The notes: generated from the letters alone by a model not told the origin. DNA of 64,000 nucleotides from a virus (IMGVR_UViG_3300028364_000018:58488-122487); one strand, 5' to 3'. Positions 1 to 53,928 are shown, counted from the stretch's first letter. Made by a program: numbers and translations.

Positions 1-321
1 CCCCTTTCAATCGCTCTTGAGCGCATTCATGATGCGGTGCGTACCCATAAAGGCAGGCTTCACTTTGTACACGCTGAAGACCTGACAAACGATCCACAAG
101 AAACGATGAACAAGGTCTGGTCGTATCTGGGGATGGATCCATTTGTACACAACACCAATAACGTGGAACAATACACCACCGAACATGAGCTTGGATTCCC
201 CTATGGGGACCATAAAATAAGACCCAAGATCGAACCGCTTAAAAAAGAGTGGAACGAGGTATTGGGCAGAGATTTATCAAGCGCAATCGCAACAAAATTC
301 CAATGGATAAACGAATTATGA
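1..321 (+). CDS. Sulfotransferase-family protein, C-terminal part (5' end outside window)
   Basis: Frame is open from base 1. LHFVHAEDLTNDPQETMNKVWSYLG matches the sulfotransferase 3'-PB motif region (YEDL..DP...+..+..FLG). Confidence 0.7.
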   Translation, partial: PLSIALERIHDAVRTHKGRLHFVHAEDLTNDPQETMNKVWSYLGMDPFVHNTNNVEQYTTEHELGFPYGDHKIRPKIEPLKKEWNEVLGRDLSSAIATKFQWINEL

Positions 322-875
322 AATACGCAATAACAGGACCAAGAGGACGGATATTTAATATCCTAGACGAAGAACCGCAACGGGAGCATTCTTCTCTTAC
401 GGACGAACAAGCGGTGCAAGCCTCCGAGGGTATCTGGTTCATCGTCGAAGGTGAGTTAAAAACACAGGCGGAGTTCCGTGTAGTGGCACAGGCACAGAGA
501 CAGGCTGAACGCATGACTGAGCTGTATGCTCAAGACCCGGCCCAAGCCAAGGCACACAAACGCCAAGCGCTATCGGATGCACGCTACCAAGCGGAGATAG
601 GAGGCACGACCTTCAACGGCATCCCCCTCCGCACGGACAGGCAGACGCAGGCAACGCTCACAAGCGCGATGCTCTTTGCGCAAGCCGATGCAAACTTCAC
701 GACTGACTGGAAGCTGGGCGATGGGCAATTTATCACGCTGGATGCCGCGACTGTCATCGGCCTTGCGGGTGCGGTTCTCTCCCATGTGCAGACGCAATTC
801 ACGCGGGAGAAAGACCTAAATGCCCTTGTCGATTCCGCGACTACCGCCGAAGAACTTAACACCATCACTTGGTAA
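318..875 (+). CDS. DUF4376-type tail-fibre-associated protein
   Basis: ATG at 318 overlaps the upstream stop (ATGA). The C-terminus RYQAEIGG..RTDRQTQ..DWKLGDGQFITLDA..VQTQF.REKDL..ATTAEELNTITW is typical of DUF4376. Confidence 0.7.
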   Translation: MKYAITGPRGRIFNILDEEPQREHSSLTDEQAVQASEGIWFIVEGELKTQAEFRVVAQAQRQAERMTELYAQDPAQAKAHKRQALSDARYQAEIGGTTFNGIPLRTDRQTQATLTSAMLFAQADANFTTDWKLGDGQFITLDAATVIGLAGAVLSHVQTQFTREKDLNALVDSATTAEELNTITW

Positions 876-885
876 CAAATAAATT

Positions 886-1275
886 ATGACAAAATTACTA
901 CTAACGATTTGCATCCTGACTTTTACAGGGTGCTCAACTCCTACCCCGTCTGACTCCAAACCTGTACCGGAAAACTACATGGGGCATCCTACGCTCACGC
1001 GTGGGCTTTTCCGAGAGCTACATGGCTCCTACTTTAACGAGACCGCTGAAAGTCGTATGGTGGTGCGGGTTGAGATGGGCACTGAGTATCAATACGAGTA
1101 CTCCTCACGCCTCTACGAAAATAAGCTTACCTATGAGTTCCGCGTTTGGATCGGTAATACGCAAACGGATTTTGATCGAGCGGTAAGCGACATCATGGCG
1201 ACGATTAAAACCCTGCCAGAAGAGGATTGGGGTAAGCTTGATGTCGGTCTAAATTATGATCGGGGTCAGCTATGA
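886..1275 (+). CDS. Lipoprotein, partner of S8 protease (copy 1)
   Basis: Signal peptide with lipobox FTGC. Paralog of 8228..8608 (shared L.G.YFN and PEEDWG.LD..L.YDR). Confidence 0.8.
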   Translation: MTKLLLTICILTFTGCSTPTPSDSKPVPENYMGHPTLTRGLFRELHGSYFNETAESRMVVRVEMGTEYQYEYSSRLYENKLTYEFRVWIGNTQTDFDRAVSDIMATIKTLPEEDWGKLDVGLNYDRGQL

Positions 1276-2249
1276 CGTTTCGGGTCGATGATCATGGGGC
1301 ATCTACCCCGCCTGATGTAATTCGGGTTTTGGTTAATGATACCTGGGGCGGAGAATTGCACCCCGCGCAAGCCAAGCTGTTTCCTTGGGCAGATGTCCGT
1401 CGATTGGACTACAAAGCTCTACGCAATCCGCACGGTCACATGGTTCTTGTAGAGTTTCTGCTTGCTTTAAAACGTGCACACATCGAAAAATACGGGATAC
1501 TTCCAAACCGCGTAGAGGTTGATATGTTTCCGTTTTTAGAGATGCAACGCAAGTATCCAGATAGCTGGTTTACAAATATTGCAAAGAAAAAGTATCATGC
1601 CGTAATCAATTCTTGGGGGGATGCCTCTCGCTCCATTTTAGACATGGCCTTTGCCAAATCTAAATTTGCTCAATCCGATAAGCGTAAACGCATTGAGGAT
1701 GCTGTAGGTGACACGCTCCTTTTTTGGGCTTCGGGAAATTCGGATGTTTCGGAGCGTGGAAAGCCTGATGTCCAGTTAAATCTAAATTATACGCAATACC
1801 TTTTACGGAGATTTATCGAGTCCTCAATCATTGTGGGCAGCTGCGATCAGGTTGGATTGCCGTCAACTTTTTCGTCCGATGGCTGGGTGGATGTCGCGTA
1901 CCGCGGCGAAAATATCTTGTTGTACAATCCGATCAACCGCAAATACCAAAAGGGTCAGGGCACAAGCTTTTCAAATCCTGCGGCCTCCGGTGACTGTGTA
2001 GGCCGTGGCCTGTTTACTGCTGAGGGCGTAAGAGCCTATTTCAAGGCTCGAGCAACCTCTCATCCATCTTGGGATGGGGACAAGTTGCATCCTAAATTTG
2101 GTGAGGGTGTGATCGTTTTTGATGGTGAGAAGCAAGTCACGAGTGATGTGCTGGCGATGCCGCTATCGTGGCACGATAATAAAAAACTGACCGTGTTTAA
2201 CCACCGCCGATTTATTAGCGGTTTGAAACTTCGTCGGGTGAGTCGATGA
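1272..2249 (+). CDS. Subtilisin-like (S8) serine protease (copy 1)
   Basis: Catalytic motifs in order: VLVNDT (Asp), PHGHMV (His), INSWG, ASGNSD (oxyanion Asn), IVGSCD..STFSSDG.VDV, GTSFSNP (Ser). Confidence 0.85.
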   Translation: MTFRVDDHGASTPPDVIRVLVNDTWGGELHPAQAKLFPWADVRRLDYKALRNPHGHMVLVEFLLALKRAHIEKYGILPNRVEVDMFPFLEMQRKYPDSWFTNIAKKKYHAVINSWGDASRSILDMAFAKSKFAQSDKRKRIEDAVGDTLLFWASGNSDVSERGKPDVQLNLNYTQYLLRRFIESSIIVGSCDQVGLPSTFSSDGWVDVAYRGENILLYNPINRKYQKGQGTSFSNPAASGDCVGRGLFTAEGVRAYFKARATSHPSWDGDKLHPKFGEGVIVFDGEKQVTSDVLAMPLSWHDNKKLTVFNHRRFISGLKLRRVSR

Positions 2250-2458
2250 AGCTTAAGCTCCTTTGTATGGCTGCTTTAATCCTGCTTACTAGCGGATGCG
2301 TCTATGTTACGATATCAATCGTTGGTGTCCAGAATAGAAGCAACACCCTTTTACCGTCGGGCGAAGCGTTGACCACCTCGGATACTGATAGTACCGGCGG
2401 TGGTTCGGTAGACGCAAAACTTTCGCCTTTAGATGAACCCTTGGAGATTGAATTATGA
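2246..2458 (+). CDS. Small lipoprotein
   Basis: MKLKLLCMAALILLTSGC lipobox; ATGA overlap with the upstream gene. Confidence 0.7.
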   Translation: MKLKLLCMAALILLTSGCVYVTISIVGVQNRSNTLLPSGEALTTSDTDSTGGGSVDAKLSPLDEPLEIEL

Positions 2459-2625
2459 AAAAGAAAATAAATAATTGGTACACCTTTGTAATTTGCTTTG
2501 TCTTACTGTTGCTCTGTCTGCTACCCCTTAGCGGATGCCGAACCTATTACAAATACTCTGATTGGGCCGAGGAGACTTTCGACCCTGATTTTACTCACCC
2601 TCAAATTGAAAACCCAGCGGAATAA
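2455..2625 (+). CDS. Small lipoprotein (56 aa, not in ORF track)
   Basis: Manual translation MKKKINNWYTFVICFVLLLLCLLPLSGCRTYYKY...ENPAE*; lipobox LSGC; ATGA overlap. Confidence 0.65.
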   Translation: MKKKINNWYTFVICFVLLLLCLLPLSGCRTYYKYSDWAEETFDPDFTHPQIENPAE

Positions 2626-2627
2626 TT

Positions 2628-3275
2628 ATGAAAAATAAAAATGGATCTACAACTTTTGAATGGATCGCCCTAATCCTAATCGCGGTCTTTGGCTTCTTTG
2701 TGCTTACAGCTTGCGCCCTAACACCAGACCAGCGGGACTCGTTGAATCGGTTATTCGCATTTGGCGAAGACGTATTCGAGGTCTATGACCAATTTAAAGA
2801 CAACGGTGAAGAAGTACCTCCTACTCCCAACCCCGATCAGCCAGACAATGACCTTGGGGAATTTGTGGATTGTACTAAACATGGCAATTTCCTGTATAAG
2901 GTGGAGGGCGGTAAACGATACCAAAAAAGCGCATCTAAAGAGAAATGGTATCTAGTTGACTGCGAGGGGGTACACTTGCCTTATAGCAACTGGTGGCTAT
3001 TAAAACTGGATTCGGAAACGGGCGGTCAAATGGCCTTACTGGTCCCATATAAATATAGAGGTTTAATTGCTTCTGTATCTGTAAATGGGGTAGGTGCAAA
3101 TGTCCGTAACAATATTGCCAATGGTGGTCGGAGCCACTACTACTTCCCAGTCACAAAGGGCCCTTATGCGGTAGTAGTAACCCTCAAAGATGGTACTGTA
3201 TTAACACATACTGTACCTGATGGCGCAATGCGTAGTGACAGACCCGGGCAAGCGGGTGAGGTTTGGGCAGACTAA
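2628..3275 (+). CDS. Exported protein/lipoprotein with Pro-rich linker
   Basis: Hydrophobic N-terminus ending in VLTAC, a PPTPNPDQP linker, then a beta-rich domain. Confidence 0.65.
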   Translation: MKNKNGSTTFEWIALILIAVFGFFVLTACALTPDQRDSLNRLFAFGEDVFEVYDQFKDNGEEVPPTPNPDQPDNDLGEFVDCTKHGNFLYKVEGGKRYQKSASKEKWYLVDCEGVHLPYSNWWLLKLDSETGGQMALLVPYKYRGLIASVSVNGVGANVRNNIANGGRSHYYFPVTKGPYAVVVTLKDGTVLTHTVPDGAMRSDRPGQAGEVWAD

Positions 3276-3491
3276 TGGCCACACGATTATTTGTGTGACG
3301 TGCTTCCTAAACTTTGCACATCCAAGCAAGCGGCTGAGGTCTTCAAAGAGTTTATGATTTTGGATGGGGTACCAAAACGCATCTGGTACCCAAAATACAA
3401 AGGTGTGCAGCATTTCGGGCCTCAGTTTGGCCGGGCTAAAGATCTGGAGGCGTTGGGCAGCCAGCCGGAGCCTGTTGTGATGTTGGGGTAA
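3276..3491 (+). pseudogene. 5'-truncated DUF1353 remnant
   Basis: Frame reads PHDYLCDVLPKLCTSKQAAEVFKEFM..VQHFGPQF, aligning to the C-terminal half of 9405..9863 (LHDFL..CDTHLASAIFMEAL..EHYGPQF). In-frame stop at 3273 and no in-frame ATG before the HD motif. Confidence 0.65.
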
Positions 3492-3704
3492 ATTTTTTTG
3501 ACCGCTAAATTTCGCTAATGAGATCGGTAAGAAATTGAGTCTTGTTCATCCCGCTTTTTTTAATGGCGATCATTAGCTTTTGATTTAAATCTTCGGGGAG
3601 CGTGAAAGAATGCCGATTGTGGTTGGGACCATCTGGCTAGATGGGGCGGTTGTTGGAGAGGACCAGAACATACAGGTGGAGTTGGTGGTCATCCCATAAA
3701 GGCC

Positions 3705-3733
3705 TTGACAAACTGCTGACTCTAAGGCAATCT
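3705..3733 (+). promoter_or_regulatory. Sigma70-like promoter
   Basis: TTGACA-N17-CAATCT, 6 nt before ATG 3740. Confidence 0.55.
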
Positions 3734-3739
3734 GCGTAG

Positions 3740-3979
3740 ATGCCTATCCAACTCCGAACAACCGATAATAAGGTCCAGATTCTCACCCCGCAAACGCGGT
3801 TTGTGGAGGTTGTGGATGACCAACAGCATTTGGTATCCCTGGTCTGGCAGGACCAGGAGGGTCTAACTTGCGTGGCTAGTACCCCGGATAAGATGATCGA
3901 CCGTTATTGCCGGATGTTCGGACTGACGCCCTGCGAATCGCGAACACTACCCAACCACATGTTTCAGGACTCCCAATGA
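3740..3979 (+). CDS. Hypothetical protein
   Basis: 79-aa ORF directly after a promoter and coupled to the next gene. Confidence 0.6.
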   Translation: MPIQLRTTDNKVQILTPQTRFVEVVDDQQHLVSLVWQDQEGLTCVASTPDKMIDRYCRMFGLTPCESRTLPNHMFQDSQ

Positions 3980-4653
3980 GCTTAATTCAGGGATTACAGG
4001 ATATAGCAGATGCGCAGGATGAGCAGGTGGTGGTGTTCGACACCCCATTGACGGCACCCCCGGAAGTGATACTGGCTGTGGTGGAGAACACATCAGCAGA
4101 CTCCCTTAAACTCGCTATATCAGCGGAGATCACCAGTAAATCCACCACGGGCTTCACCGCCTCCCTCAGTCAGACGACCAACAGTGCGAACTACAAGCTG
4201 AGTTGGTACGTATCAGACGCCGGGGCGCTCGCGGCGCTGGTCAATACAGCGTTGGGTGGCCGGCGTATATCAGAGTTACCGACCGCCCCCACCCTGGAGG
4301 AGGGTGATACGCTGACGCTTATACGTCCCTACCCCTACCCGCATGCCATGCAGGTTCAATGGGGATCTACTGCCAATGGCTTGCTCAGGCGTACTGACGT
4401 ACCGGTCTCAGAGGTAAGCCCGGGTACAGTAGGAGATTGGGCGGCGACTTCCAGTGGCTTCTGGTTCTACGGAGACAGTGGTTGGGTCCTGTATGAGGGT
4501 CAACCCGCTGTTCCACGCCTTAATTGGGTGGAGAGCGTACCGGCTGATAGCGATGCGCCTGGGACGGAGCGGGATGTGGTTTATGACGGCAACTACCTGA
4601 ATCTTTGCGTTGGGCCCAACACCTGGGTACGCTTCCAGGGCCTCACTTTCTAA
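3976..4653 (+). CDS. Tail/tail-fibre-associated protein
   Basis: ATG 3976 (ATGA overlap). RRISELPTA and the C-terminal P.DSDAPG....YDGNYLNLCVGPNTWVR motif are common in phage fibre proteins. Confidence 0.55.
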   Translation: MSLIQGLQDIADAQDEQVVVFDTPLTAPPEVILAVVENTSADSLKLAISAEITSKSTTGFTASLSQTTNSANYKLSWYVSDAGALAALVNTALGGRRISELPTAPTLEEGDTLTLIRPYPYPHAMQVQWGSTANGLLRRTDVPVSEVSPGTVGDWAATSSGFWFYGDSGWVLYEGQPAVPRLNWVESVPADSDAPGTERDVVYDGNYLNLCVGPNTWVRFQGLTF

Positions 4654-4681
4654 TTGACAACCACCAGTAACTACCTATACT
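4654..4681 (+). promoter_or_regulatory. Sigma70-like promoter
   Basis: TTGACA-N16-TATACT, 6 nt before ATG 4688. Confidence 0.7.
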
Positions 4682-4687
4682 CCGATT

Positions 4688-5005
4688 ATGAGCTACATTA
4701 CTACAATCCCATTTGGTCCCGCTGTTTTCACCCTTGTGAATGGGGTGGGAAGCGGTAGTGGCATACCCCTTCCTGCGCTGGGATCCTCCGCAGAACCCCT
4801 GACAGAGGTCGAGCCCGACTTTAGTGGGTTGTACGAGGCCGCGGGAGAGGTACGCAAGATGTACCACCAAGCAGCTTCCTTCGTTCCTCCCAGCACTTGG
4901 GTGTTGATCGGCTCTGGCGCATACGAAGCCGGGGTGTTGAACATCATCTACTTTGAGAAGGTAGGTGCTCGGGTGGAGTACTGGGTAGCACAAGAGGAAG
5001 AGTAA
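4688..5005 (+). CDS. Small fibre-related protein
   Basis: Its C-terminus (YH..W..G..Y..VLNIIYFE.V..VEYW.AQ) matches the C-terminus of tail fibre 53929..55239. Confidence 0.65.
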   Translation: MSYITTIPFGPAVFTLVNGVGSGSGIPLPALGSSAEPLTEVEPDFSGLYEAAGEVRKMYHQAASFVPPSTWVLIGSGAYEAGVLNIIYFEKVGARVEYWVAQEEE

Positions 5006-6483
5006 TGAGTTATCGACAGGCATTACTACAGAATGGTTACTCGCTTGACCCTTTGTTCTTCCGTGATTTTTTCCCAAACGGATCGGCAATTCTTTCGACG
5101 CGGGTTTTGAGTTCGGACTTTGTAGGCTCCGACCTATTAACTTCCCGCCGCTCCAGTGACAATGCGGAACTAGGTTTTACCGCACCGGCAATCGCAGATG
5201 GGACGCTTACAACTTGGGCAGGCGCGAATGATGGACTGGTTCCTACTTGGTACGACCAGAGAGTGCCTACTAATAAGGACTATATGTATTTTGGAGGTGC
5301 AAGTTCAGGGGACAAGGTTGTTTTTGGTAGTCGTATAGAATTAACTGTAAACAATTTTATAATTAAATATAAAAACCTTATCGTAGACACTCCTAGTGAT
5401 ATTGATATTCTAAACTTTGACACAGTGAGCAATGCACAAGCTGTTTGTTATCACAACACGACAAACGTCAGGGTCAGGGCATACAACTCTCCCTTTAATT
5501 TGTATAATATAAGTTTATCAACAGCTTTACCAGTAGGAACAGAATTTGATTTTGAATTGCAAAGAGTTAGCAATACTGTAACTGTGTTTTTGAACGGACT
5601 ATCAGTAGGAACTCAAACTGTTGACTCGGGAGATAACTTCGGCTTTGATAGAGTAAATGGAGATTTGACTAATAGCAGTATGTGGAAAGGATATCTTCGT
5701 AAACTAGAAGTTTATGAGGGTGCTTCTGATGTTTTAACTCATAGTTATCCCGCAGATGGAAATAAAAACTCAAACTGGACAGACCAAATCGGTTCAAACA
5801 ACGGAACAGTTTATGGTTCTCCTGCTAGAGTTTTAAAAACAGATTTTACAAAAACCTCAAGAGACTTTTCTCAATCAACAGCAGGTTCACAACCTTTAAT
5901 TGTAGAAAATGGTACTTTGATAGTTGAAAACACAAAGCCAATGATTGATTATAATGGGACAACAGACCATTTGAGATGTCCTGCTTCTAGTTTTATAACT
6001 CCAACAACAGCTTTGCAGGTGTCAGTTGTGTGTAAAAATGATAGTGCTACTTTAAGTGCTTTTGAAATTTTAATAGGTCAATACGACCACGGTTCAAATC
6101 AAAGAAATTGGTTTATGGGTGTTAATGCTGATGAAAAACTAGAACTAGCTTTTGGAGACCCTAGTAACGGAACTCTTGAAGGTAATTGGACATCAGATGC
6201 AGTCATATCTCCAGCAAATTTACAAACTGTTGGATTTACATATAACGCAGGAATAGTTCAATTAAAAGTAAATGGTTCTAACGTCGCAGGAAGTATTAGT
6301 GGCGCTATCCCAGCCACGTTATACAATTCAAATGTAGATGCAACGATTGGCTGTGTACTTTCTTCAAACTCCCCAGTTTCTCATTGGAACGGACAAATCC
6401 TAGAAGTATATGTCGCAGACAACCTAACCGACAACTTGGACGATATTCAGGCGGCGCAGATGGAAGCATTTAACATTACATAA
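5005..6483 (+). CDS. Putative receptor-binding/tail protein with concanavalin A/LamG-like domains
   Basis: RRSSDNAE..DGTL...G..DG.V.TWYDQ and QP.IV.NG motifs; C-terminal LamG-like ATIG..SHWNGQILEVYVAD. Confidence 0.7.
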   Translation: MSYRQALLQNGYSLDPLFFRDFFPNGSAILSTRVLSSDFVGSDLLTSRRSSDNAELGFTAPAIADGTLTTWAGANDGLVPTWYDQRVPTNKDYMYFGGASSGDKVVFGSRIELTVNNFIIKYKNLIVDTPSDIDILNFDTVSNAQAVCYHNTTNVRVRAYNSPFNLYNISLSTALPVGTEFDFELQRVSNTVTVFLNGLSVGTQTVDSGDNFGFDRVNGDLTNSSMWKGYLRKLEVYEGASDVLTHSYPADGNKNSNWTDQIGSNNGTVYGSPARVLKTDFTKTSRDFSQSTAGSQPLIVENGTLIVENTKPMIDYNGTTDHLRCPASSFITPTTALQVSVVCKNDSATLSAFEILIGQYDHGSNQRNWFMGVNADEKLELAFGDPSNGTLEGNWTSDAVISPANLQTVGFTYNAGIVQLKVNGSNVAGSISGAIPATLYNSNVDATIGCVLSSNSPVSHWNGQILEVYVADNLTDNLDDIQAAQMEAFNIT

Positions 6484-6488
6484 TAATT

Positions 6489-6971
6489 ATGATATACCTC
6501 CCATTAACCGCGCTCCCTCCGCAAACACTCTCTGCTAGTCTTTGGGCCTTGTCTCGACCAGATGCACAAGATAACGATACTCAATTCTATTGCGGGTGGA
6601 TCACACACCCCACGACTGATCAAAAAGCTATCGCGCTTGACCGGCTGGACACCCAGCCAATCCACGCAGACGCGGAACCAGCTATCGACGCACTCACACA
6701 GGGACTGGCTCCGTTTCTACCTGCAAACGAACTGACCGCATTGCAATCTGCTTTGATGGATGCACGAGGCGGGCGAATCAACATCGTGGACATTTTGCCC
6801 ACCACTTTTACCGACAGTCTTTTAACGCGCGATCAAGCTGAATTTGCTGGTTGGTTTCCAAAGGATGACTTGTTCACCATGCTCTCGGCTGCTGGATCAA
6901 CCTATCAGGGCCGGATGCTTTCTATCCCGCAATTTCATCGGGAATATCCGATAAAACAGGAAGAGATTTGA
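6489..6971 (+). CDS. Hypothetical protein (possible fibre chaperone)
   Basis: 160-aa ORF directly downstream of the LamG protein; the functional guess rests on position only. Confidence 0.5.
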   Translation: MIYLPLTALPPQTLSASLWALSRPDAQDNDTQFYCGWITHPTTDQKAIALDRLDTQPIHADAEPAIDALTQGLAPFLPANELTALQSALMDARGGRINIVDILPTTFTDSLLTRDQAEFAGWFPKDDLFTMLSAAGSTYQGRMLSIPQFHREYPIKQEEI

Positions 6972-7141
6972 TGCCCGATCCCACAACACCCAAACCCCAA
7001 GCCATCGATCCCAAGACGGCGTTGACCGTCCTGAAGTTCATATGGAAGTACGCGAAGACCCCTTACGCTAAGTACGCGGCGCGTCGGGCCTGGAAAGAGC
7101 AGAAGGCTATCGATACACAAGACACCCAAGGCGGAGCATGA
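6971..7141 (+). CDS. Small basic amphipathic protein (56 aa, not in ORF track)
   Basis: MPDPTTPKPQAIDPKTALTVLKFIWKYAKTPYAKYAARRAWKEQ...GGA*; TGATG and ATGA overlaps on the two sides. Confidence 0.6.
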   Translation: MPDPTTPKPQAIDPKTALTVLKFIWKYAKTPYAKYAARRAWKEQKAIDTQDTQGGA

Positions 7142-7323
7142 AGACCCTCATACTACTCGCATTACTCAGTACCGGCTGCACCAGTACCCAACGCCTATTC
7201 ATTTGGAGTAAGTCGGGCGAGGCTGTTGACAAAGAAGCGTACGACCGGGAATGGCAGAGGTTGGAGGATCAGGAGCAGGAGCAGAATTTACTGGACAAAC
7301 CGGTTGTACCTGAGTTAGAGTAG
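7138..7323 (+). CDS. Small lipoprotein (o-spanin candidate)
   Basis: MKTLILLALLSTGC lipobox; adjacent to the holin-like gene. Confidence 0.6.
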   Translation: MKTLILLALLSTGCTSTQRLFIWSKSGEAVDKEAYDREWQRLEDQEQEQNLLDKPVVPELE

Positions 7324-7361
7324 GTTGATGTCAAACCACACTCAAACATTAGGAACTTAAA

Positions 7362-7751
7362 ATGGATTTACAAGCATTAACACAGATGAGCGCCGCCGGA
7401 CTACTGGTTATCCTTGTTGTCTATGTCCTAAAGTACATGGTGAAGCAGCAGGATGCCAAAAACACCTATATGTCTGCGCAAATCGAGTCCAAGGATAAGC
7501 TATTGGAGGCCCAACGTCTGTACATCGATGACCTCCATCGTGAGGCACGTGTGGATGCGGTCAACACCGTGGGAGTCCTTGATAACGTGATGAAGGTTGT
7601 GAGGGAAACATCAGCCAATCAAACCAATCTCAGCGGTGACATACACAACCACTTCAGTTCTATAGGTGGGGCACTAACCAAACTCATGGAGAGTCTGGAT
7701 CAGCGCTTTACCCACCTTCAAGAAATGTTAGGAACCCCAAAGAAGGATTAA
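7362..7751 (+). CDS. Holin-like protein (BhlA/UviB-like single TM plus coiled coil)
   Basis: N-terminal TM AAGLLVILVVYVLKYMVK followed by a coiled coil; SD aggaac. Confidence 0.55.
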   Translation: MDLQALTQMSAAGLLVILVVYVLKYMVKQQDAKNTYMSAQIESKDKLLEAQRLYIDDLHREARVDAVNTVGVLDNVMKVVRETSANQTNLSGDIHNHFSSIGGALTKLMESLDQRFTHLQEMLGTPKKD

Positions 7752-7755
7752 TCAG

Positions 7756-8244
7756 ATGAACGCAGTATGCGAGAAATATCACGACCCTGAACTCCAAGCA
7801 TTAAGAACGGAGGTGCGAGCGAAGTCCGATTCTATCAAAGCCCTAGTTAGAGGGGTGTACGTCCCTCTTTCTGAGGGGTGTGTGACAGTCACAGCCATTC
7901 AGTGGGCGCTCACACCCTCTGCCAACGTCAGGATGCGCCTCTGCGCCCTAGACCTCGAAGACCCGGAGCACACAGTCGTAAACGTGGTGTTTGATGCGGA
8001 GGGCACCTTAGGTCTTCATCACCAACCAGAGCAGCTGACCCTATTCTGCCTATCCGGATCGGTGCTGGAAATGATTAGTGGTAAGATTGTGAACGAGGGA
8101 GAGGTGTTATCAATCGGACCACACCAGAAGATCGAGTTGGCGTCCACCCGAGCATACCTGACCCTCACATGGAGGCCCCCATTGGAAACTGCTGAAGTAG
8201 TCAACCCATATAACCCCCGGAATTGCAATGCTAAGACTTCTTAG
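7756..8244 (+). CDS. Cupin-like protein
   Basis: VFDAEGTLGLHHQP..LFCLSGSV..VNEGEVLSIGPHQKI resembles a cupin barrel. Confidence 0.45.
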   Translation: MNAVCEKYHDPELQALRTEVRAKSDSIKALVRGVYVPLSEGCVTVTAIQWALTPSANVRMRLCALDLEDPEHTVVNVVFDAEGTLGLHHQPEQLTLFCLSGSVLEMISGKIVNEGEVLSIGPHQKIELASTRAYLTLTWRPPLETAEVVNPYNPRNCNAKTS

Positions 8245-8608
8245 AACCCAAACTAGATATCTGATACTGGCCCTCGCCCTGGGCCTTCCGGCGTTCACCA
8301 ATACCGGTTGTACGCACGTCGAGATCCCCGCCGCAATAGAGGGGGAGGCCGATCTCTCCAGAGAGGTCTATACAAGACTCAGAGGCACGTACTTCAATTT
8401 GGCGGTGCATACACTGCACATCGAGCACGGAGCACCTCCAGAAGTACGGATGATCGGTCAACGCCTAGAGGTGCAGATAGATGGGTCGGAACCGCAACTT
8501 GATTGGGCGGTGGATGAGGTGGTGCGCCTCATCCAACTAAACACCCCAGAAGAAGATTGGGGAGAACTCGACCCTGCGCTGTTCTACGACCGGAGTTGGG
8601 AACGATGA
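8228..8608 (+). CDS. Lipoprotein, partner of S8 protease (copy 2)
   Basis: Lipobox NTGC; paralog of 886..1275. Confidence 0.8.
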   Translation: MLRLLRTQTRYLILALALGLPAFTNTGCTHVEIPAAIEGEADLSREVYTRLRGTYFNLAVHTLHIEHGAPPEVRMIGQRLEVQIDGSEPQLDWAVDEVVRLIQLNTPEEDWGELDPALFYDRSWER

Positions 8609-9405
8609 GGCCTCGGGTACTGGTGGCAGACACCTGGAGTAAGGATGTGGATAACCGCCTTAAACGGGCTTTCCCCAATGCCCGCTTCATCCCCTTGGGA
8701 ACACCCTCTGGAAACCATCCGCACGGTCATATGGTGACGGAGGCTCTCCTTACCCGATTCGGGCAGGGTGAGATCGATATCTACCTCTATGCACACCTAG
8801 AAGAGCAACAGCAACATACTCAAGGCTGGCTTGAACAAGCACGGAAGCATCAAATCCCATGGATCAACAATAGCTGGGGGGCGACCGCCCGTGGATCCTA
8901 TGTTGTACCGCAACACCGGGATATGGAGGGGCTCCTCGCATTGTTTGCGGCTGGCAACAGCGATAGGTCGCGCAGAGGTAAGCCCGACACTACTTGGGAT
9001 GTGAATGAGCCGCAGAGGAGTCTGGCTCACCTGCAGGGCACCGTAATAATTGGTAGTTGTGATGCACGGGGTCTCCCCAGCACCTGGTCTTCTGATGGAC
9101 TGGTGGATGTGGCCTACCGTGGTGAACGTCATTGGTTATTCAACCCACTCACAGGGTTCTACGAGTGGGTGGATGGTACGTCCTTCGCCTGCCCGTTGGC
9201 ATCGGCAGACGCCGTAAGAATGAACCTGCGTACCGAAGAGCAACTTAAAGAGTGGTGGAGTCAACCCGGGGTTGCAACCCGCGCACCTGGTTGGCCACAG
9301 AACATCCTACACCCGAAAACAGGAAGAGGCTTTATATCTGATGCCCTACCCAAGGCCCCGCACGTGGCCTCACTTTCTTATAGTGAGTATACTCGGGTCT
9401 CCTGA
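8605..9405 (+). CDS. Subtilisin-like (S8) serine protease (copy 2, 266 aa)
   Basis: ATG 8605 (ATGA overlap). Motifs VLVADT, HPHGHMV, INNSWG, AAGNSD, GSCD..STWSSDG.VDVAYRGE, GTSFACP. Confidence 0.85.
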   Translation: MRPRVLVADTWSKDVDNRLKRAFPNARFIPLGTPSGNHPHGHMVTEALLTRFGQGEIDIYLYAHLEEQQQHTQGWLEQARKHQIPWINNSWGATARGSYVVPQHRDMEGLLALFAAGNSDRSRRGKPDTTWDVNEPQRSLAHLQGTVIIGSCDARGLPSTWSSDGLVDVAYRGERHWLFNPLTGFYEWVDGTSFACPLASADAVRMNLRTEEQLKEWWSQPGVATRAPGWPQNILHPKTGRGFISDALPKAPHVASLSYSEYTRVS

Positions 9406-9863
9406 TGTACTACAATAGCCTGTCTAACACGTACTTCGGTAACGATGGTAAGCTAGAGTGGCACGGTTGGCGGGATGTCCCATGGGTTTCCGTGGGAGAT
9501 GGACCTCTGTCCTCCAGACCCTTCACATTGGTACGCCCTGCCCACTTTTATAGTCGCACGGTCGACCGTTGGATAGATCTACCAGACGGCTTCTCCACCG
9601 ACTTCTTTAGTATACCAAGGCCCTGGCGCTGGTACTTCCAAACGATGGGTCCCGGGAGGACAGCCGCGCTTCTACACGACTTCCTAGTGGAAGACCGCCC
9701 TGATTGGTGTGATACCCACCTAGCCTCCGCCATTTTCATGGAGGCCTTGACCCTAGCCAAGATTGGTGGTTGGCGCGTCCAAGCTTTTGGTTGGGCTACT
9801 GAGCATTATGGCCCCCAATTTTCTAAGAAATATCCGTATAATACACAACCCAAGGGACGGTGA
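9405..9863 (+). CDS. DUF1353-family protein
   Basis: GFSTDFFSIPR..W..AALLHDFL..AIFMEAL signature. Confidence 0.8.
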   Translation: MYYNSLSNTYFGNDGKLEWHGWRDVPWVSVGDGPLSSRPFTLVRPAHFYSRTVDRWIDLPDGFSTDFFSIPRPWRWYFQTMGPGRTAALLHDFLVEDRPDWCDTHLASAIFMEALTLAKIGGWRVQAFGWATEHYGPQFSKKYPYNTQPKGR

Positions 9864-11035
9864 TGAAAACAGAAAAGATAGTTAGGCACCAAGGTGGGGT
9901 ACTCACCGAACGACAACAGGAGGTGCTAGACACCTACCTGACCTGCATGTGTAAACAGGAGACAGCCAATAAACTAGGTCTTAGTAGGAGCTCCGTACGC
10001 TCTCACCTACAAGTGATAGAGCGCAAGGGGCAAGCCCCATGGTTATCAGGAGCTCCCCAACCTGAGCACCTTAAGATGGTGAAGACCACAGTCCAGTACG
10101 ACGCAGGCGGTAATGTGGTTCAGGAATGGCGACGGAATATCCCGGACGTGCAATTTATGGAGGATGTGATAGAGGCCTGCGCTGCCCGACTTAAAGGTCT
10201 GGGTAAGGCCAAGGCCCGACGCGGGCGTAACCGTAAAGATAAAGGACGGCTGGTCGAGATCGATATCTACGATCCACACATTGGGATGTACGCAGATGCG
10301 AGGGAGACCAACGACGAGGACTATGATACGGATAAGGCCAGTATCCGGATGGTACAGGCCGTAGAGAACCTACTAGAACGAACACCCCAAGCGGAAGAGC
10401 GAGTTCTGGTGTTCGGAGGAGATATCCAACACAGTGACAACCGTTCTAACACCACGGAGATGAGTAAAAACGTGCTGGATGTGGATACGCGGTATTTCCG
10501 GGTGGTGAATCACGTGGCGAGGACCTGTGTGGATTGTGTGCATATGGCGGCCGCCAGTTGTAAGAAGCTTACAGTGGTGGTCATCCCCGGTAACCACGAT
10601 TACCACGCTGGTATATGGCTCCAGACCCTGCTACGAACCATATACGAGGGACAATCGAATGTAACGATCCTCGATCAGTACAGTTCCCGCAAGGTCATGG
10701 TCTGGGGAGAGAACATGCTTTGTTGGGCACACGGTGACGGCGTGCGCGGTAATAAATGGGCACCTGTGATTGCCGCGGAGTTTGCTAAGGAGTGGGGAAA
10801 CACCACCTTCCGACACCTGAAGCTAGGTCACATCCATCATGCCAAGACCGTCGCACCGGTAGTGGTGGACGAACAAGCGGGGTTACTGGTTGAACACCTA
10901 GAGGCCCTTTGCCCTTCCGACGCCTGGCACAGCCACTCAGGCTTTGTCGGCACCCAGCGTGGGGCCTCCGCCTTTGAGTACGACAAGAAGTACGGACTCT
11001 ACACCAGGCATTATCACAGCGCCACCCGCGTTTAA
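9863..11035 (+). CDS. HTH plus calcineurin-like metallophosphoesterase
   Basis: N-terminal HTH (QETANKLGLSRSSVRSHL); motifs DPHIG, GDIQH, GNHD, AHGD, GHIHH. Confidence 0.85.
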   Translation: MKTEKIVRHQGGVLTERQQEVLDTYLTCMCKQETANKLGLSRSSVRSHLQVIERKGQAPWLSGAPQPEHLKMVKTTVQYDAGGNVVQEWRRNIPDVQFMEDVIEACAARLKGLGKAKARRGRNRKDKGRLVEIDIYDPHIGMYADARETNDEDYDTDKASIRMVQAVENLLERTPQAEERVLVFGGDIQHSDNRSNTTEMSKNVLDVDTRYFRVVNHVARTCVDCVHMAAASCKKLTVVVIPGNHDYHAGIWLQTLLRTIYEGQSNVTILDQYSSRKVMVWGENMLCWAHGDGVRGNKWAPVIAAEFAKEWGNTTFRHLKLGHIHHAKTVAPVVVDEQAGLLVEHLEALCPSDAWHSHSGFVGTQRGASAFEYDKKYGLYTRHYHSATRV

Positions 11036-11413: not shown

Positions 11414-13657
11414 GTGAAAGCCGTACAACTACTCATTGAATCCCGGCTTCCTCCAGAACTGCGCGATTATAACCGGGAGTACACAGCTAAGTCCATAGGG
11501 AATCTCCTATCGGACTTGGCAGTTTCGTACCCAGATAAGTACGACGAGGTGAGCAGGCTTATCGGTGACACTGGGCGTAACAGTAGTTACTGGCAGGGTG
11601 ACACCATCAAACTGTCTGACCTGAAGCCCGTATTCGACAAAGAACCGTTGTTGGAGCAGATGAAGGCGGAGATCGCGGGCTTACCACGGGATGACCCGAA
11701 GTTCGAGGACCAGCGCCAGGCTGTATGGATCCGGTACAACGAGGAGATGCAGAGGCTCACCAACGAGGCAGGAGCCACGTCCGATAACAGCATCGCACGA
11801 GCTGTATTGAGCGGTGCGCGTGGTAAACCCGACCAGATGAAGATGATGCTGACCGCCCCCGGACTCTACTCCAACAGTAAGGGTGTAGTTCCGTTATTCA
11901 TCAGTCATAGCTTTGGAGAGGGCCTGCGCCCCGCTGAATACCTGGCTAGTACCTACGGAGCACGTGATAGTATTGTGAAGATCAAGACCGCTACGGCGAA
12001 AGGTGGCGATTTTGGGAAGCAAATTGCGCAAACTGCTGCTACTACGATAGTTACGACGAAAGACTGCGGTACAGACAACGGGTTGGACTTGGATTTGGCA
12101 GACCCCTCGCTGAGAGGCCGGGTGCTGGCTAAGGCCGTGGGTGGGCTGGGAGTCGGAACTGTTTTAGATCGAAGTGCCTTACAACAGTTGGAGAAGGAGA
12201 AGGTCACGACCGTTATAGCGAGGTCGGCCATGACCTGTAATGCCGGTACTGGTGTGTGCCAGCAGTGCATCGGTAAGTTTCACGATCAACGCTTTCCTAA
12301 GATAGGGGAGGCAGTGGGGGTAACAGCGGCTAACGCATTAAGCGAGCCCGTCACTCAAGGCAGCCTTGGATGTCTAACGGACGATACACTGGTTCGTATG
12401 ACAGACTTCACTACCAAAAGAATCGACCAGATCAAGGTCGGGGACATGGTGTTAGGCTCGGATGTAAAGGCCAGGACCTTCCCGGTCAAGGTCCTACATG
12501 TGTGGGATAAAGGACTCCAACCGGTCAAGCGTCGGGTTTTCACCCAGCCGGAGCTATCAGTGGACTGTACTGACGACCATATCATGCTCTTGTCGGATGC
12601 ACAGGGTGTTCTCAGCAAACAACCAGCTGGAACCCCGGGAGAGGTGTTGGCCCCCATAGTCGGGCTTCCACACCCTCTACCCAGAACAGCTGTGGAAGAC
12701 CTAGGCCTTCTTCACTGCATGGACATCAGCGTCGATCACCCGGATGAGCTGTTTGTCCTAGCCAACGGTTTGATAGTTAAGAACAGCAAACATTCGGGAG
12801 GCCAGACAACAGGTAAAAAAGAGTATTCGGGCTTCAACGTCATCAACCAACTTGTGCAATCCCCAGAGGAGTTCCCAGACAGAGCCCTAGTCTCGGAAGA
12901 GAGCGGTACAGTCAGCTCCGTAGAAGAAGCACCCCAAGGTGGGTTCATCGTGACTGTTGGAGAATCCCAGCATTACGTACCCCAGGGGTATCCGGTGATG
13001 GTTAAGTCCGGCGACCGGGTTGAGGCGGGTGATCAGCTCAGCGAGGGCCTGATAGACGCGGGTGACATCGTACGCCTTCGTGGTCTAGGTAGCGGACGGC
13101 GTTACTTTGCGGATCGCCTACACCGTGTACTGGAAGACAGTGGATTCGGAGGGGATAAACGTAATGTGGAGATCGTAAGTCGGTCTGTCATTGATCATGC
13201 TCGTGTCGAGGATGACCAGAACCTACCCGGGACACTCCCTGACGATCAGATCAGCTACAACCGCCTTAGCCAGACCTACACCCCACCAGCGTCCTCCAAA
13301 CGTCTTCCAACAGCAGATACAGTCGGCCAATACCTACAGAGCCCGGCTCTGCACTACTCGATTGGAACCCGGCTAAGCCCCTCCCAAGTAAAACGCCTCC
13401 AAACATCGGGCTATACCCATCTTGAGGTATCTCCGGAAGAGCCGGGGTTCCGTACGGAGATGCAGAGACTTCGGACATCCACACAGACCAACCCCGACTG
13501 GTTGGCCCGGCAAGGCGCTTCGTACCTCAAGAGTAATTTACTGGAAGGGGCGGTCCGAGGACAGGACACCAATATACAATCTAACATTCATTTTGGACCG
13601 AGGCTTGCATTTGGTAAGGATTTCGGTAAGAATACGGCAACTACAGGAGAATTTTAA
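11414..13657 (+). CDS. rpoC: Phage RNA polymerase beta-prime subunit, C-terminal half, intein-containing
   Basis: SGARG, SFGEGL.PAEY..STYGAR (bridge helix), KDCGT and CNAGTGVCQQC (Zn site), GEAVGV.AA..LSEPVTQ, SKHSGG (trigger loop), KRNVEIV. No NADFDGD motif, so this is one piece of a split subunit. Confidence 0.92.
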   Translation: MKAVQLLIESRLPPELRDYNREYTAKSIGNLLSDLAVSYPDKYDEVSRLIGDTGRNSSYWQGDTIKLSDLKPVFDKEPLLEQMKAEIAGLPRDDPKFEDQRQAVWIRYNEEMQRLTNEAGATSDNSIARAVLSGARGKPDQMKMMLTAPGLYSNSKGVVPLFISHSFGEGLRPAEYLASTYGARDSIVKIKTATAKGGDFGKQIAQTAATTIVTTKDCGTDNGLDLDLADPSLRGRVLAKAVGGLGVGTVLDRSALQQLEKEKVTTVIARSAMTCNAGTGVCQQCIGKFHDQRFPKIGEAVGVTAANALSEPVTQGSLGCLTDDTLVRMTDFTTKRIDQIKVGDMVLGSDVKARTFPVKVLHVWDKGLQPVKRRVFTQPELSVDCTDDHIMLLSDAQGVLSKQPAGTPGEVLAPIVGLPHPLPRTAVEDLGLLHCMDISVDHPDELFVLANGLIVKNSKHSGGQTTGKKEYSGFNVINQLVQSPEEFPDRALVSEESGTVSSVEEAPQGGFIVTVGESQHYVPQGYPVMVKSGDRVEAGDQLSEGLIDAGDIVRLRGLGSGRRYFADRLHRVLEDSGFGGDKRNVEIVSRSVIDHARVEDDQNLPGTLPDDQISYNRLSQTYTPPASSKRLPTADTVGQYLQSPALHYSIGTRLSPSQVKRLQTSGYTHLEVSPEEPGFRTEMQRLRTSTQTNPDWLARQGASYLKSNLLEGAVRGQDTNIQSNIHFGPRLAFGKDFGKNTATTGEF
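12371..12784 (+). mobile_element. Mini-intein (138 aa, no homing endonuclease)
   Basis: Starts CLTDDTLV..KRIDQIKVGDMV, block B CTDDH, ends MDISVDHPDELFVLANGLIVKN followed by Ser +1. Confidence 0.9.
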
Positions 13658-38344: not shown

Positions 38345-38679
38345 TGCTCCTGGCTCACCTCCGGGGGCTACTAAAACCAGATTATAAGCATGGACTTGTC
38401 AGCCGAGGCGCTGAGAAGATGATCCTACGCGCCCTCGCAGCTGAGTTGCAGGCAGAGGCTCTAAATGCAGGGGCTCAAGCAGATGCGAGCATACTGCCCA
38501 TTATATCAAAGGATGCTAGGGTGGAGTCTTACGAGAATATGAGCGGAAGGTTGCGCAAGAGCGATAGGTTGCGACGCTTGTTGTTCCGTGAGAACATGGT
38601 CGATAAACAGAAGAGCGCGATTGACTCTATGGTCGATTTGTTCTACGCTCTGGAGAAGGCCCAACTCATAAGATCCTGA
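38320..38679 (+). CDS. Tail assembly chaperone (T-like, frameshift extension; own ATG at 38344)
   Basis: -1 frame relative to the upstream ORF; precedes the tape measure. Confidence 0.65.
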   Translation: MDTPGRRLMLLAHLRGLLKPDYKHGLVSRGAEKMILRALAAELQAEALNAGAQADASILPIISKDARVESYENMSGRLRKSDRLRRLLFRENMVDKQKSAIDSMVDLFYALEKAQLIRS

Positions 38680-41099
38680 TGTCATACAACTATAACCAAA
38701 ACTTCCAGACAGACTACGCGCAACCATTTGGCGGGTTCAACCCCAGCCAGATGGAGTATATCCTGCGTCAATCCCGGATGCAGGACCAAGCGGCGTTCCA
38801 ACAGCAGTTACTACGGTCTGACCCCCGGGCACAGTTCGCGGCCGCCATGTGGGAAAACAACATGGGGGCGTTGGGTAATCAGGGACGTAACACCGCAAGG
38901 TTGATAGCCGGCTCCGCCATTAACTCCAGACAGTTGAGTCCGTTATTCGGGGGAAGTCGGGTTGACATGTACTCAGGCATCGCAACCGGGTTGGGTAACG
39001 CCGGTCTGATGGGCATGCGTATGGTGGGGGATGGTCCGACTCGAACGGAGTCGTTCCATGGACCCGGATCTCTCACATCCTTAACCGCCCGTTCGATGTT
39101 GGGCGTTATGGAGAGTAACATGTACAACCCTCTGGGCGGAGCACGGACGCACCGTACTGGTGGTCTTGATCGTTCGGAACTCGGGGCGGTTGCCGGACAC
39201 ATGCTGTCCAACGGGATGTACGGGGAGGTTGGGAACGTCGGTACGATCCATAAATACAAGACGCGCGCAGAGGCTAAAGCAGCCCGAACAAAATTCAAAG
39301 GTTCGGGTGATACCGACTCGGTGCGTCAGATCGATGCGATGTTGCAGGAGCATACAGGTAAAGACGGGGAGGCTCTTGATTTTGAAATGCCCCAACGCCT
39401 GATGACCATCGACGATGGTATGAAGGAGAAATTTAGGGCTGCGACAGAGCAGGGTGCGAAGGTCGTCGGGCAGATTAAGGATATCCTGGGCGACATCGGC
39501 TCCTCAGCCTTAATCGCTCAGCTAGAGAGTCTAACGGGTGGTGCGGGTGGAGCACAGAGTCTGCGTATGGCCGAACAACGTCTGCAGAAGGTGGGGGCCA
39601 TGGCGGCTGCCGGAGGGGGTAGTCAACAAGCGTACTTGGCGGAGCACGGTCGGGTAGCTGGCTTGTACCAGTCAATGGGTATGTCCTCCTTCTCTGCCGC
39701 GGCTGCCAGTATGGATACGATGGGTGCTATGAGCTCCAAACGGCTTCTTAACCAGAAGTATGTGCAGACCATGGCGGATCAAGGTGTTTACGTGGAGGAC
39801 CGCTCGGAAGATGCGATTACCGAGAGCGTGATGAACGTCGCGGCCATGCATGATGAGAATCCGGAATTGGCGACAATGCTATATGCGGCTCAAACCTCTT
39901 CCAAATTGACTGGAGAACAACGCGCGGCGCTGGAGAAGAAGATTCAGGGCGCGACTAATGCCGGAGCAGGTCTGACGGGCGCAGAACGCCGTCAGGCGGT
40001 CGGAAAAGCTATGGCAGGGGCCGCCTCCGAGGTAGAGCGCCAGACAGGACGCTCCTTGCGCGATTGGAACGATCGGGCTGGTGGAGATGCTCTAGGTCAG
40101 CTCCAACCAGGCGGGGCGTCCATCATGTTCAATATGAGCCAGAAGGAGATGGGTAATCGCTCCTGGGATCTACTCAGTAAGGACCTATACAATGAAATGG
40201 GTGCCAATGTTTCAAAGACCGGTGTAGCTGTAGCGAAGAAGTACAGTAAAGCCACTATAGCCAAACACGCTGCTACAGGGGAAGATTGGGAGGGTATGAC
40301 TTCCGCGCAACTCACGTATCTGGCTGATACTCTGAATGGTAAGGACTACTCTGAATTGGTCTCTGAAGAGGGGCAGACCGAGGCGTTAAAGAAGGAGATA
40401 GAGGAGCGCCATGGTGCGATGACCCTGGGAGACACTCCACGAGGTCAGAATTCTATAATAGAGGGTATACTTGGTGGGGAGACTATATCAGACGCAATGG
40501 TCGGGGAGTCCCTGCGCAATAAAAATAACCGGGGTAAAACACAAGAGACGATGGGTTGGGATGACAAGAAGCGTAAGGCATTCATTGATAAGCACGAGGC
40601 AGGTGGCGGAGCCGTGCTTATGGACAAGGATGGCAATTATGTGGTGTACAACGCGGAGGAGATGGAAGCCGGGCGCAAGGGGTTGGAGCGTGAGTCTTCC
40701 GCAGCAATACAGAAGAAGTTGCTTGGGTCCGAGCATGTGTTTGATGAGACGCTCAGTCCCGAAGCTCTAGGCACGAAATTTAAGGCGCGGACAACAGAAG
40801 TATTTGCGCTGGAAGGAGAGGCTCGTGTAACAGCATTGAATGAGATGACTGAAGGCATTAAAGCGGGTGACGTAGACCCCGGAGTCTTTTTAGCCCAACT
40901 TGAGACAGAGATAGCAACAGGGCAGGAGGCCGCAGATAAGATAAAGCCCAAAAAGGCTGTTGAGAAGAAAACGCAACAGGACTACGTAGATAAGCTGAAA
41001 GGACTCCGAGATGAACTACAAACCACCCAACCTTTCGATCCGCAAACGTGGGCTGTTAAGATCTTCGCTGTACTCGACTCAATCATGAACAAACTATAA
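38679..41099 (+). CDS. Tape measure protein
   Basis: 806 aa, Ala/Gly/Met-rich helical; follows the chaperone pair. Confidence 0.75.
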   Translation: MSYNYNQNFQTDYAQPFGGFNPSQMEYILRQSRMQDQAAFQQQLLRSDPRAQFAAAMWENNMGALGNQGRNTARLIAGSAINSRQLSPLFGGSRVDMYSGIATGLGNAGLMGMRMVGDGPTRTESFHGPGSLTSLTARSMLGVMESNMYNPLGGARTHRTGGLDRSELGAVAGHMLSNGMYGEVGNVGTIHKYKTRAEAKAARTKFKGSGDTDSVRQIDAMLQEHTGKDGEALDFEMPQRLMTIDDGMKEKFRAATEQGAKVVGQIKDILGDIGSSALIAQLESLTGGAGGAQSLRMAEQRLQKVGAMAAAGGGSQQAYLAEHGRVAGLYQSMGMSSFSAAAASMDTMGAMSSKRLLNQKYVQTMADQGVYVEDRSEDAITESVMNVAAMHDENPELATMLYAAQTSSKLTGEQRAALEKKIQGATNAGAGLTGAERRQAVGKAMAGAASEVERQTGRSLRDWNDRAGGDALGQLQPGGASIMFNMSQKEMGNRSWDLLSKDLYNEMGANVSKTGVAVAKKYSKATIAKHAATGEDWEGMTSAQLTYLADTLNGKDYSELVSEEGQTEALKKEIEERHGAMTLGDTPRGQNSIIEGILGGETISDAMVGESLRNKNNRGKTQETMGWDDKKRKAFIDKHEAGGGAVLMDKDGNYVVYNAEEMEAGRKGLERESSAAIQKKLLGSEHVFDETLSPEALGTKFKARTTEVFALEGEARVTALNEMTEGIKAGDVDPGVFLAQLETEIATGQEAADKIKPKKAVEKKTQQDYVDKLKGLRDELQTTQPFDPQTWAVKIFAVLDSIMNKL

Positions 41100-41100
41100 A

Positions 41101-47851: not shown

Positions 47852-47903
47852 GTCCCTACACTATAACCCCGACCACCCTTTACACGTACCCACCTTAAAC
47901 CCC

Positions 47904-47932
47904 TTGACACAAACCTGCAACCCAGCTATAAC
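47904..47932 (+). promoter_or_regulatory. Sigma70-like promoter
   Basis: TTGACA-N17-TATAAC, 6 nt before ATG 47939. Confidence 0.7.
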
Positions 47933-47938
47933 CCATTT

Positions 47939-48844: not shown

Positions 48845-48854
48845 TAGATAGGTC

Positions 48855-48883
48855 TTGCACGAAGACCCTCGTGTATGTAAGGT
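48855..48883 (+). promoter_or_regulatory. Sigma70-like promoter
   Basis: TTGCAC-N17-TAAGGT, 6 nt before GTG 48890. Confidence 0.55.
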
Positions 48884-48889
48884 AAGGGC

Positions 48890-53920: not shown

Positions 53921-53928
53921 AACCGCTT

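Follow-up and report, generated by a model that had tools for sequence, protein, structure and literature searches.

SphB1 and NalP are lipoprotein subtilase autotransporters that act on envelope proteins and carry lipobox, protease and transporter in one polypeptide. In the 64,000 nucleotides of viral DNA analysed here (IMGVR_UViG_3300028364_000018:58488-122487, referred to as the window; the final 64 kilobases (kb) of an IMG/VR virus record of 122,487 base pairs with a CheckV completeness of about 63%), a lipoprotein and a subtilase are instead encoded by separate genes with no frameshift signal at their junctions, and this gene pair occurs twice, each time together with a DUF1353 gene or its remnant. 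The Bacillus intracellular subtilisin proteases, which have bacterial housekeeping functions, possess neither a signal peptide nor a classical I9 prodomain and carry a short N-terminal blocking extension, whereas the phage proteases start almost at the catalytic Asp, have a conserved C-terminal tail and are paired with a lipoprotein. Lipid-cleaving enzymes directed against an outer envelope layer are known from mycobacteriophage LysB, other lipolytic lysis proteins and the patatin-like phospholipases of phage WO; these belong to other enzyme families and are accompanied by neither a protease nor a partner lipoprotein.

Holin-endolysin-spanin cassettes in phages that infect Gram-negative bacteria, including those with the o-spanin Rz1, likewise place a hydrolase without a signal peptide beside a small lipoprotein and membrane proteins, with tight gene overlaps (PMC6139136). 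Many of the partner lipoproteins described below also resemble o-spanins in containing several prolines and in a predicted length of about 25-45 residues after signal cleavage. The arrangement differs, however, in that the enzyme is a protease and not a peptidoglycan hydrolase, the lipoprotein is encoded ahead of the enzyme, no i-spanin gene is embedded in or overlaps the lipoprotein gene, and no spanin or holin family is matched. The TtaP/TtsA typhoid toxin islet and prophage DUF1353 genes share with the window the Pfam family, the HD motif, the lack of a secretion signal and the linkage to envelope-breaching genes (PMC11525133), whereas the neighbour of TtaP is the muramidase TtsA and the neighbours here are a subtilase and a lipoprotein. 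A literature search found no description of a lipoprotein paired with a leaderless subtilase. Sequence comparison indicates that this pair is a conserved two-gene unit of phages, recurring across very different uncultured representatives. The module is probably an undescribed tool against the bacterial envelope, for which a role in lysis is put forward as a proposal.

The lipoprotein-subtilase pair

Thirteen contexts with readable DNA upstream of the protease gene were counted. An open reading frame (ORF) with a lipobox ends at or overlaps the S8 protease start in 10 of them under strict criteria and in 12 on visual inspection. As background, the same arrangement was counted for other ORFs of 150 amino acids (aa) or more from this DNA and holds for 4 of 176; the strict count gives Fisher p = 2e-11. 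The contexts include relatives with the same RNA polymerase as the window phage (L003, L005 and L016), a contig with a Mu-type portal and the prohead protease Mu-like_Pro_N (L015), one with a SU10-type capsid gene (L020), two with genes for replication (for example RecA, DnaB or RNA ligase; L014 and L017) and two with recombination or nucleotide-metabolism genes (L022 and L021). In most of them, membrane proteins and further lipoproteins are clustered around the pair. Fusion of lipoprotein and protease by frameshifting was considered and rejected: no slippery site is found at the junctions, and both the overlap (0 to 41 nucleotides) and the frames vary across contexts.

Both window proteases exceed the Pfam Peptidase_S8 (PF00082) cut-off of 21.8 bits, and a six-frame search of the genome found exactly two S8 copies, both within the module. 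An earlier note, made from the sequence of the window, had reported that the catalytic Asp, His, Asn and Ser are kept, and an alignment of 35 family members agrees, with the triad Asp9, His40 and Ser193 and the oxyanion residue Asn118 (copy 2 numbering) being invariant. In a profile alignment to subtilisin Carlsberg-type chains, the catalytic motifs pair with VLDTG, HGTH, AAGNS and GTSMASP. The catalytic Asp is located within the first 9-30 residues of all 35 members, without a hydrophobic leader, and the signal peptide and I9 propeptide of classical secreted subtilisins are missing throughout. A C-terminal HPKxGxG is common to all aligned members, as is a tail motif of the type aromatic-x-[D/E]-hydrophobic.

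The family appears to be confined to uncultured sources. A profile search of 1.84 billion representatives returned 74 proteins at E<=1e-10, nearly all of 260-350 aa; the approximately 74 cluster representatives are all metagenomic and no fetched context comes from a cultured phage. The region, the copy 2 protease and three distant family members were compared with 50,697 cultured-phage records, for near matches and at the protein level, without a hit, and scans of IMG/VR and JGI metagenomes with family alignments added only one further contig and one fragment. PADLOC and NCBIfam yielded nothing useful, and in the protein atlas only generic subtilase clusters were matched. In sequence, ordinary subtilisins and mycosins come closest.

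These matches, together with the lack of a signal peptide or propeptide in any of the 35 members, would also suit a protease that, like the Bacillus intracellular subtilisins, remains in the cytoplasm and there either matures proteins of the phage or breaks down those of the host, while the co-translated lipoprotein works separately. Contexts L017 and L021, in which no membrane proteins are encoded nearby, point the same way. Such an intracellular role leaves unexplained why a lipobox gene abuts the protease gene in 12 of 13 contexts and why a common tail motif exists, and dedicated prohead proteases are already encoded on two of the contigs (Peptidase_S78 in L013 and Mu-like_Pro_N in L015). 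We regard it as quite unlikely.

The partner lipoproteins are 42 to 223 aa long, and only those of a near group can be aligned with one another; a homologue search with the window partner returned only one sequence, which is 93% identical. A [D/E/P]-W motif is found in the last 32 residues of 11 of the 13 partners. The tail motif EEDW...YDR is common to the lipoprotein at 886-1275, its copy 2 counterpart and those of L003 and L011, and in L020 Trp is the very last residue of the protein. Both window partners (886-1275 and 8228-8608) as well as 2246-2458, 2455-2625, 2628-3275 and 7138-7323 are predicted to be lipidated, each having a signal peptide that opens with basic residues, continues into a hydrophobic core and closes with a lipobox Cys. 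The mature part of partner 2 was modelled by AlphaFold2 as a confident small alpha/beta core (predicted local distance difference test, pLDDT, 83-95), for which fold searches gave weak zincin-like matches only (Z up to 5.2); the protein contains no HExxH. A possible function of the lipoprotein as an I9-type prodomain supplied in trans gains no support from these searches, with no Pfam match for the lipoprotein and no I9 entry among the weak fold matches.

Since enzyme and partner are predicted in different compartments and the lipoprotein tail motif ends in Trp, which gives it a product-like look (terminal in L020), a protease and immunity pair acting in superinfection exclusion or entry has to be weighed. 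The subtilase, coming from the virion or from lysed neighbours, would cut envelope proteins and the periplasmic lipoprotein would block it via its substrate-like acidic-Trp tail, by analogy to Spackle of phage T4, which blocks the tail lysozyme gp5. In three contexts the pair indeed lies inside a structural gene block, and tail-fibre-like genes are located beside it in the window. There is, however, no sign of protease packaging, the pair sits among replication or nucleotide-metabolism genes in L014/L017, L021 and L022, and it would be left unexplained why DUF1353 and Lipase_3 are linked to the pair and why DUF1353 is found in lysis cassettes, as outlined below. An exclusion role is considered rather unlikely.

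Further genes were observed around the pair. In L021 (4263-6104), another S8 gene, ordinary in appearance and 309 aa long, comes directly after the leaderless family member. In L005, the lipoprotein encoded immediately before S8 (9329-10000) contains a HExxH motif (HETGH), and a separate 195-aa lipoprotein in L003 (5467-6054) contains HEMIH, so that the subtilase may, judging by these motifs, be paired with a lipoprotein zinc protease in some relatives; in a profile comparison of the partner lipoprotein with the L005 protein, only the lipobox was aligned. PAS-domain proteins adjoin the pair in two unrelated contigs (L013:6978-7613 and L021:6384-7034), and in the RNA-polymerase phages a cupin is found at this place, making a small-molecule-sensing partner possible. 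Proteins with ENPxKT, a Gly/Thr-rich hydrophobic stretch and a Gly/Ser/Asp/Asn-rich tail, recognised by eye, are encoded upstream of the pair in L003 (8972-9604), L012 (3-602) and L020 (7425-7880) and may be a third recurring partner.

Two cassettes and their DUF1353 genes

The module genes of the window and their immediate neighbours are as follows.

886-1275, + strand: partner lipoprotein 1 (129 aa; lipobox ...FTGC; stop overlaps the S8 start in ATGA)
1272-2249, + strand: subtilase 1 (325 aa; Pfam PF00082, E 3.4e-11, 43.4 bits; no signal peptide or propeptide)
2246-2458, + strand: small lipoprotein (70 aa; lipobox ...TSGC)
2455-2625, + strand: small lipoprotein (56 aa; lipobox ...LSGC)
2628-3275, + strand: lipoprotein (215 aa; lipobox ...LTAC)
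3276-3491, + strand: DUF1353 remnant, C-terminal part only, from the HD motif (tblastn E 2.6e-5; phrog_1158, E 5.3e-5)
7138-7323, + strand: small lipoprotein (61 aa; lipobox ...STGC; o-spanin-like in size only)
7362-7751, + strand: single-pass membrane protein (129 aa; by hydropathy, a single hydrophobic segment at the N terminus followed by an extended hydrophilic tail)
7756-8244, + strand: cupin-like protein (162 aa; homology to the L003 Cupin_2 gene)
8228-8608, + strand: partner lipoprotein 2 (126 aa; lipobox ...NTGC; stop overlaps the S8 start in ATGA)
8605-9405, + strand: subtilase 2 (266 aa; Pfam PF00082, E 6.7e-12, 45.7 bits; no signal peptide or propeptide)
9405-9863, + strand: intact DUF1353 protein, phospholipase A2-like (152 aa; Pfam PF07087, E 1.9e-14)

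All gene positions given in the earlier note were recovered, and its view of the two cassettes as paralogous holds: identity is 37% over 266 aa between the proteases (E 2e-47) and 29% between the lipoproteins (E 5e-13), and VDVAYRGE is indeed common to both proteases. The three further lipoproteins that it placed behind the copy 1 protease have lipoboxes in ORFs 2246-2458, 2455-2625 and 2628-3275; the C-terminal part of the last is weakly similar to a 210-aa lipoprotein behind S8 in L003 (L003:10823-11455; BLASTP E 2e-5). The proposed DUF1353 remnant is real as well, with 30% identity over 53 aa to 9405-9863 (tblastn E 2.6e-5). It lies in frame directly behind the stop of 2628-3275 and begins at the HD motif; from this position and start it can be deduced that cassette 1 once comprised lipoprotein, protease and DUF1353, the front half of DUF1353 having been lost later.

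The guanine plus cytosine (G+C) content is 47.1% in cassette 1, 55.0% in cassette 2 and 51.9% in the genome. Subtilase 1 is 47% identical to the metagenomic protein P0006 and subtilase 2 is 56-58% identical to the metagenomic proteins P0002-P0004, compared with 37% between the two paralogues. Because G+C content differs and each protease is nearer to proteins of other metagenomes than to its paralogue, the cassettes are, judged by these two measures, old or separately acquired and not the result of a recent duplication. The same observations would be in line with a moron, a mobile accessory cassette that remodels the host surface through receptor destruction or the cutting of surface or defence proteins and has no role in lysis. 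The genomic position of the pair differs between phages, which also favours this explanation, as do the tail-fibre-like, lectin-like and sulfotransferase genes in its neighbourhood. However, as long as the cell is intact, a protease without a signal would have no way to its surface. No PADLOC family was matched, and promoter-like and terminator-like sites near the cassettes are no commoner than in shuffled sequence. A moron without lysis function seems rather unlikely.

The intact DUF1353 protein scores 53.4 bits against PF07087 (cut-off 22.5). The grouping of this family with phospholipase A2 (PLA2), which the earlier note had suggested, proved correct: TtaP, its founding characterised member, has a His/Asp dyad and PLA2 activity, measured in lysates and lost in a D85A mutant, and its authors suspect that it perturbs the outer membrane together with the muramidase TtsA (PMC11525133). 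In the same paper, HHpred matched TtaP to two structures of group XIV secreted PLA2s, 1LWB and 4AUP (PMC11525133). H91 and D92 are invariant in five full-length DUF1353 sequences (H70/D71 in TtaP), and the remnant also starts with HD. An acidic residue about 22 positions after His is present in all six DUF1353 rows; the counterpart of TtaP D85 is either this acid or a semi-conserved one at about +17/18, the TtaP sequence itself not being part of the alignment. Compared with TtaP (125 aa), the window protein (152 aa) has a longer N-terminal beta-rich part and is missing one semi-conserved acid, and its activity is predicted. When a model of 9405-9863 (pLDDT 77) was compared with 48,161 PDB chains, 4AUP, a PLA2 of Tuber borchii, ranked first (Z 5.7, root-mean-square deviation 3.5 over 89 residues), with a score within the chance-level range for helical models. 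A Foldseek search with this model gave no match and a PDB sequence search with the DUF1353 profile returned noise only.

Lipolytic genes recur near the pair. DUF1353 adjoins it in both window cassettes, follows it in L020 and is located on the same contig in L022, and the RNA-polymerase relatives L003, L005 and L016 encode a Lipase_3 gene 1-3 kb downstream of the pair. In cultured phages, DUF1353 is found in or beside the lysis genes in three of four cases checked: Salmonella phage Segz_1 has the order endolysin, endolysin, holin, Rz-like spanin, DUF1353; Erwinia phage Machina has endolysin, a 38-aa gene and DUF1353; and Pseudomonas phage Cygsa01 has a putative endolysin whose start overlaps with DUF1353. 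The fourth, Campylobacter phage F356, carries DUF1353 without a link to lysis genes. Because DUF1353 is a PLA2 family placed in lysis cassettes, the PHROG label "tail assembly chaperone" for phrog_1158 (DUF1353) looks like a misnomer.

Lysis genes and a possible role late in infection

Upstream of cassette 2, the gene at 7362-7751 had been described as holin-like. A single-pass membrane protein is indeed encoded, with a homologue at the same place in L003 (E 3e-13), but its only family match is to Holin_BhlA with E 0.056 and 13.9 bits, where the cut-off is 22.6, and no endolysin was detected next to it. The protein could be a holin or an i-spanin. Its topology would suit an i-spanin, and it is preceded by the 61-aa lipoprotein of 7138-7323; the order of this spanin layout is reversed and there is no spanin family match, 7138-7323 being without any family match in Pfam or PHROG. 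The cupin assignment of 7756-8244 has no Pfam match of its own and stands through 32% identity (E 6e-23) to the L003 Cupin_2 gene.

Pfam and PHROG searches found no peptidoglycan hydrolase domain in the module genes, six-frame searches of the record for Phage_lysozyme, SLT and Amidase_2 found nothing, and Pfam and PHROG scans of 146 further ORFs of the 122-kb record revealed no peptidoglycan hydrolase. The statement that no muralytic motif is recognisable in the window thus extends to the whole record at its completeness of about 63%. Two matches to phrog_938, annotated "endolysin", were rejected: they cover only 60-90 residues in the InPase segment of a polyvalent profile of 2185 positions, the polyvalent protein of the phage being split over two ORFs.

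The strong version of the earlier proposal, in which protease and phospholipase replace the endolysin in a host whose wall is proteinaceous, could draw on this result and on the fact that S8 occupies the slot beside DUF1353 that an endolysin takes in Machina and Cygsa01. About a third of the genome is missing, however, and L017, a contig with a member of the protease family, also carries a gene for a Hydrolase_2 cell-wall hydrolase. Subtilases are not known to cut peptidoglycan. Replacement is speculation because the record is incomplete, an export signal is lacking in both proteases, the match to a holin family is weak, the pair lies outside recognisable lysis cassettes elsewhere and nothing points to an S-layer or a proteinaceous wall in the host; it is the least supported version and very improbable. 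An attack of protease and DUF1353 on the envelope alongside an endolysin remains plausible.

We tentatively favour, at less than even confidence, an accessory envelope-attack module that would act late in infection. The module consists of a lipoprotein gene translationally coupled to that of a minimal subtilase, joined in this lineage to a DUF1353 gene, with the set present twice. Protease and phospholipase would accumulate in the cytoplasm, as signal-less endolysins do, and would enter the periplasm only once the inner membrane is permeabilised. The exported, lipid-anchored lipoprotein would bind the protease via its conserved acidic-Trp tail and either position it at the outer membrane or restrain it. 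The protease could then cut protein tethers or surface layers, while the phospholipase would damage membrane lipids, helping to break the outer envelope. The envelope is proposed as the target because an exported partner is coupled to an enzyme that would reach it only after permeabilisation, and because lipolytic genes as well as membrane proteins and lipoproteins recur nearby.

Several observations weigh against this envelope-attack role. In other phages, the lipoprotein-protease pair is placed between head and tail genes or among replication genes, with no recognisable holin or endolysin beside it, and its scattered genomic positions are typical of mobile accessory genes. Inhibition or immunity would account for a periplasmic partner of a cytoplasmic enzyme just as well as docking would, and the fold of the partner lipoprotein gave no informative match. 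In the intact DUF1353 copy of the window, the semi-conserved acid at about +17/18 after His, present in the five other rows, is replaced by Ser-Ala. The Holin_BhlA match of 7362-7751 is below cut-off, and since the record is only about 63% complete, the absent endolysin is no evidence that the phage lacks one.

The phage and what the module may mean

The phage encodes a multisubunit RNA polymerase (Rpb2_6, Rpb1_2 and Rpb1_5 domains) and contains inteins; nearly all genes of the record are located on the + strand and Pfam matches are very scarce. No close cultured relative was found in the search of cultured-phage records, and a scan of bacterial and archaeal genomes gave no match, so that no host was inferred. 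A beta-prime fragment of the RNA polymerase (window 11414-13657) carries an apparent Hint-type mini-intein; its L003 orthologue of 1011 aa shows a faint LAGLIDADG_3 match at the equivalent site. At G000:C1:49980-55600 (L010:11581-17201), an InPase domain is divided between two ORFs: one part closes an ORF of 442 aa and the other opens an ORF of 1447 aa, in which RNA_pol_Rpb1_2 is encoded as well. The division may reflect a frameshift, an intein or a true split.

Matches to Cas12f1-like_TNB (TnpB-type), Resolvase and transposase PHROGs occur within G000:C1:1-39090 and 38400-58399. The TNB domain is found in one ORF of 38400-58399 (E 1.8e-19) and weakly in one ORF of 1-39090 (E 8.9e-5). Taken together, these domain matches indicate putative IS607-like elements inside the phage record. 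One ORF in G000:C1:1-39090 matches the Acb2/Tad1 hairpin domain (E 1.5e-5), a family of anti-CBASS and anti-Thoeris sponges, and a gene for tRNA-His guanylyltransferase (Thg1) is located at G000:C1:42219-43025 (L010:3820-4626; phrog_4717, E 3e-84).

The first part of the window (1-6483) is a host-recognition neighbourhood, in which a sulfotransferase gene ends (1-321), a DUF4376 protein resembling tail fibres is encoded (249-875) and 3907-4653 gives a weak tail-protein match. The stretch at 5005-6483 has a G+C content of only 39% and is the likely source of a Laminin_G_3 match. Overall, 1-6483 looks like a mosaic, exchangeable region.

One preprint puts the share of phages of Gram-negative hosts without recognisable spanins at about 15% (10.1101/515445). 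How such phages open the outer membrane is only partly understood, and the lipoprotein-subtilase pair is a concrete, clonable candidate. In a more far-reaching and rather doubtful generalisation, lipoprotein and signal-less subtilase, often with a phospholipase or lipase, would be a new class of phage lysis effector that breaks the outer envelope by proteolysis and lipolysis, with the lipoprotein tail as a dock or switch, and would do the work of spanins or, with certain hosts, that of the endolysin. A compact subtilase that seemingly manages without a prodomain may be of interest to enzymologists. If the protease and immunity pair were instead true, the system would represent a new kind of superinfection exclusion.

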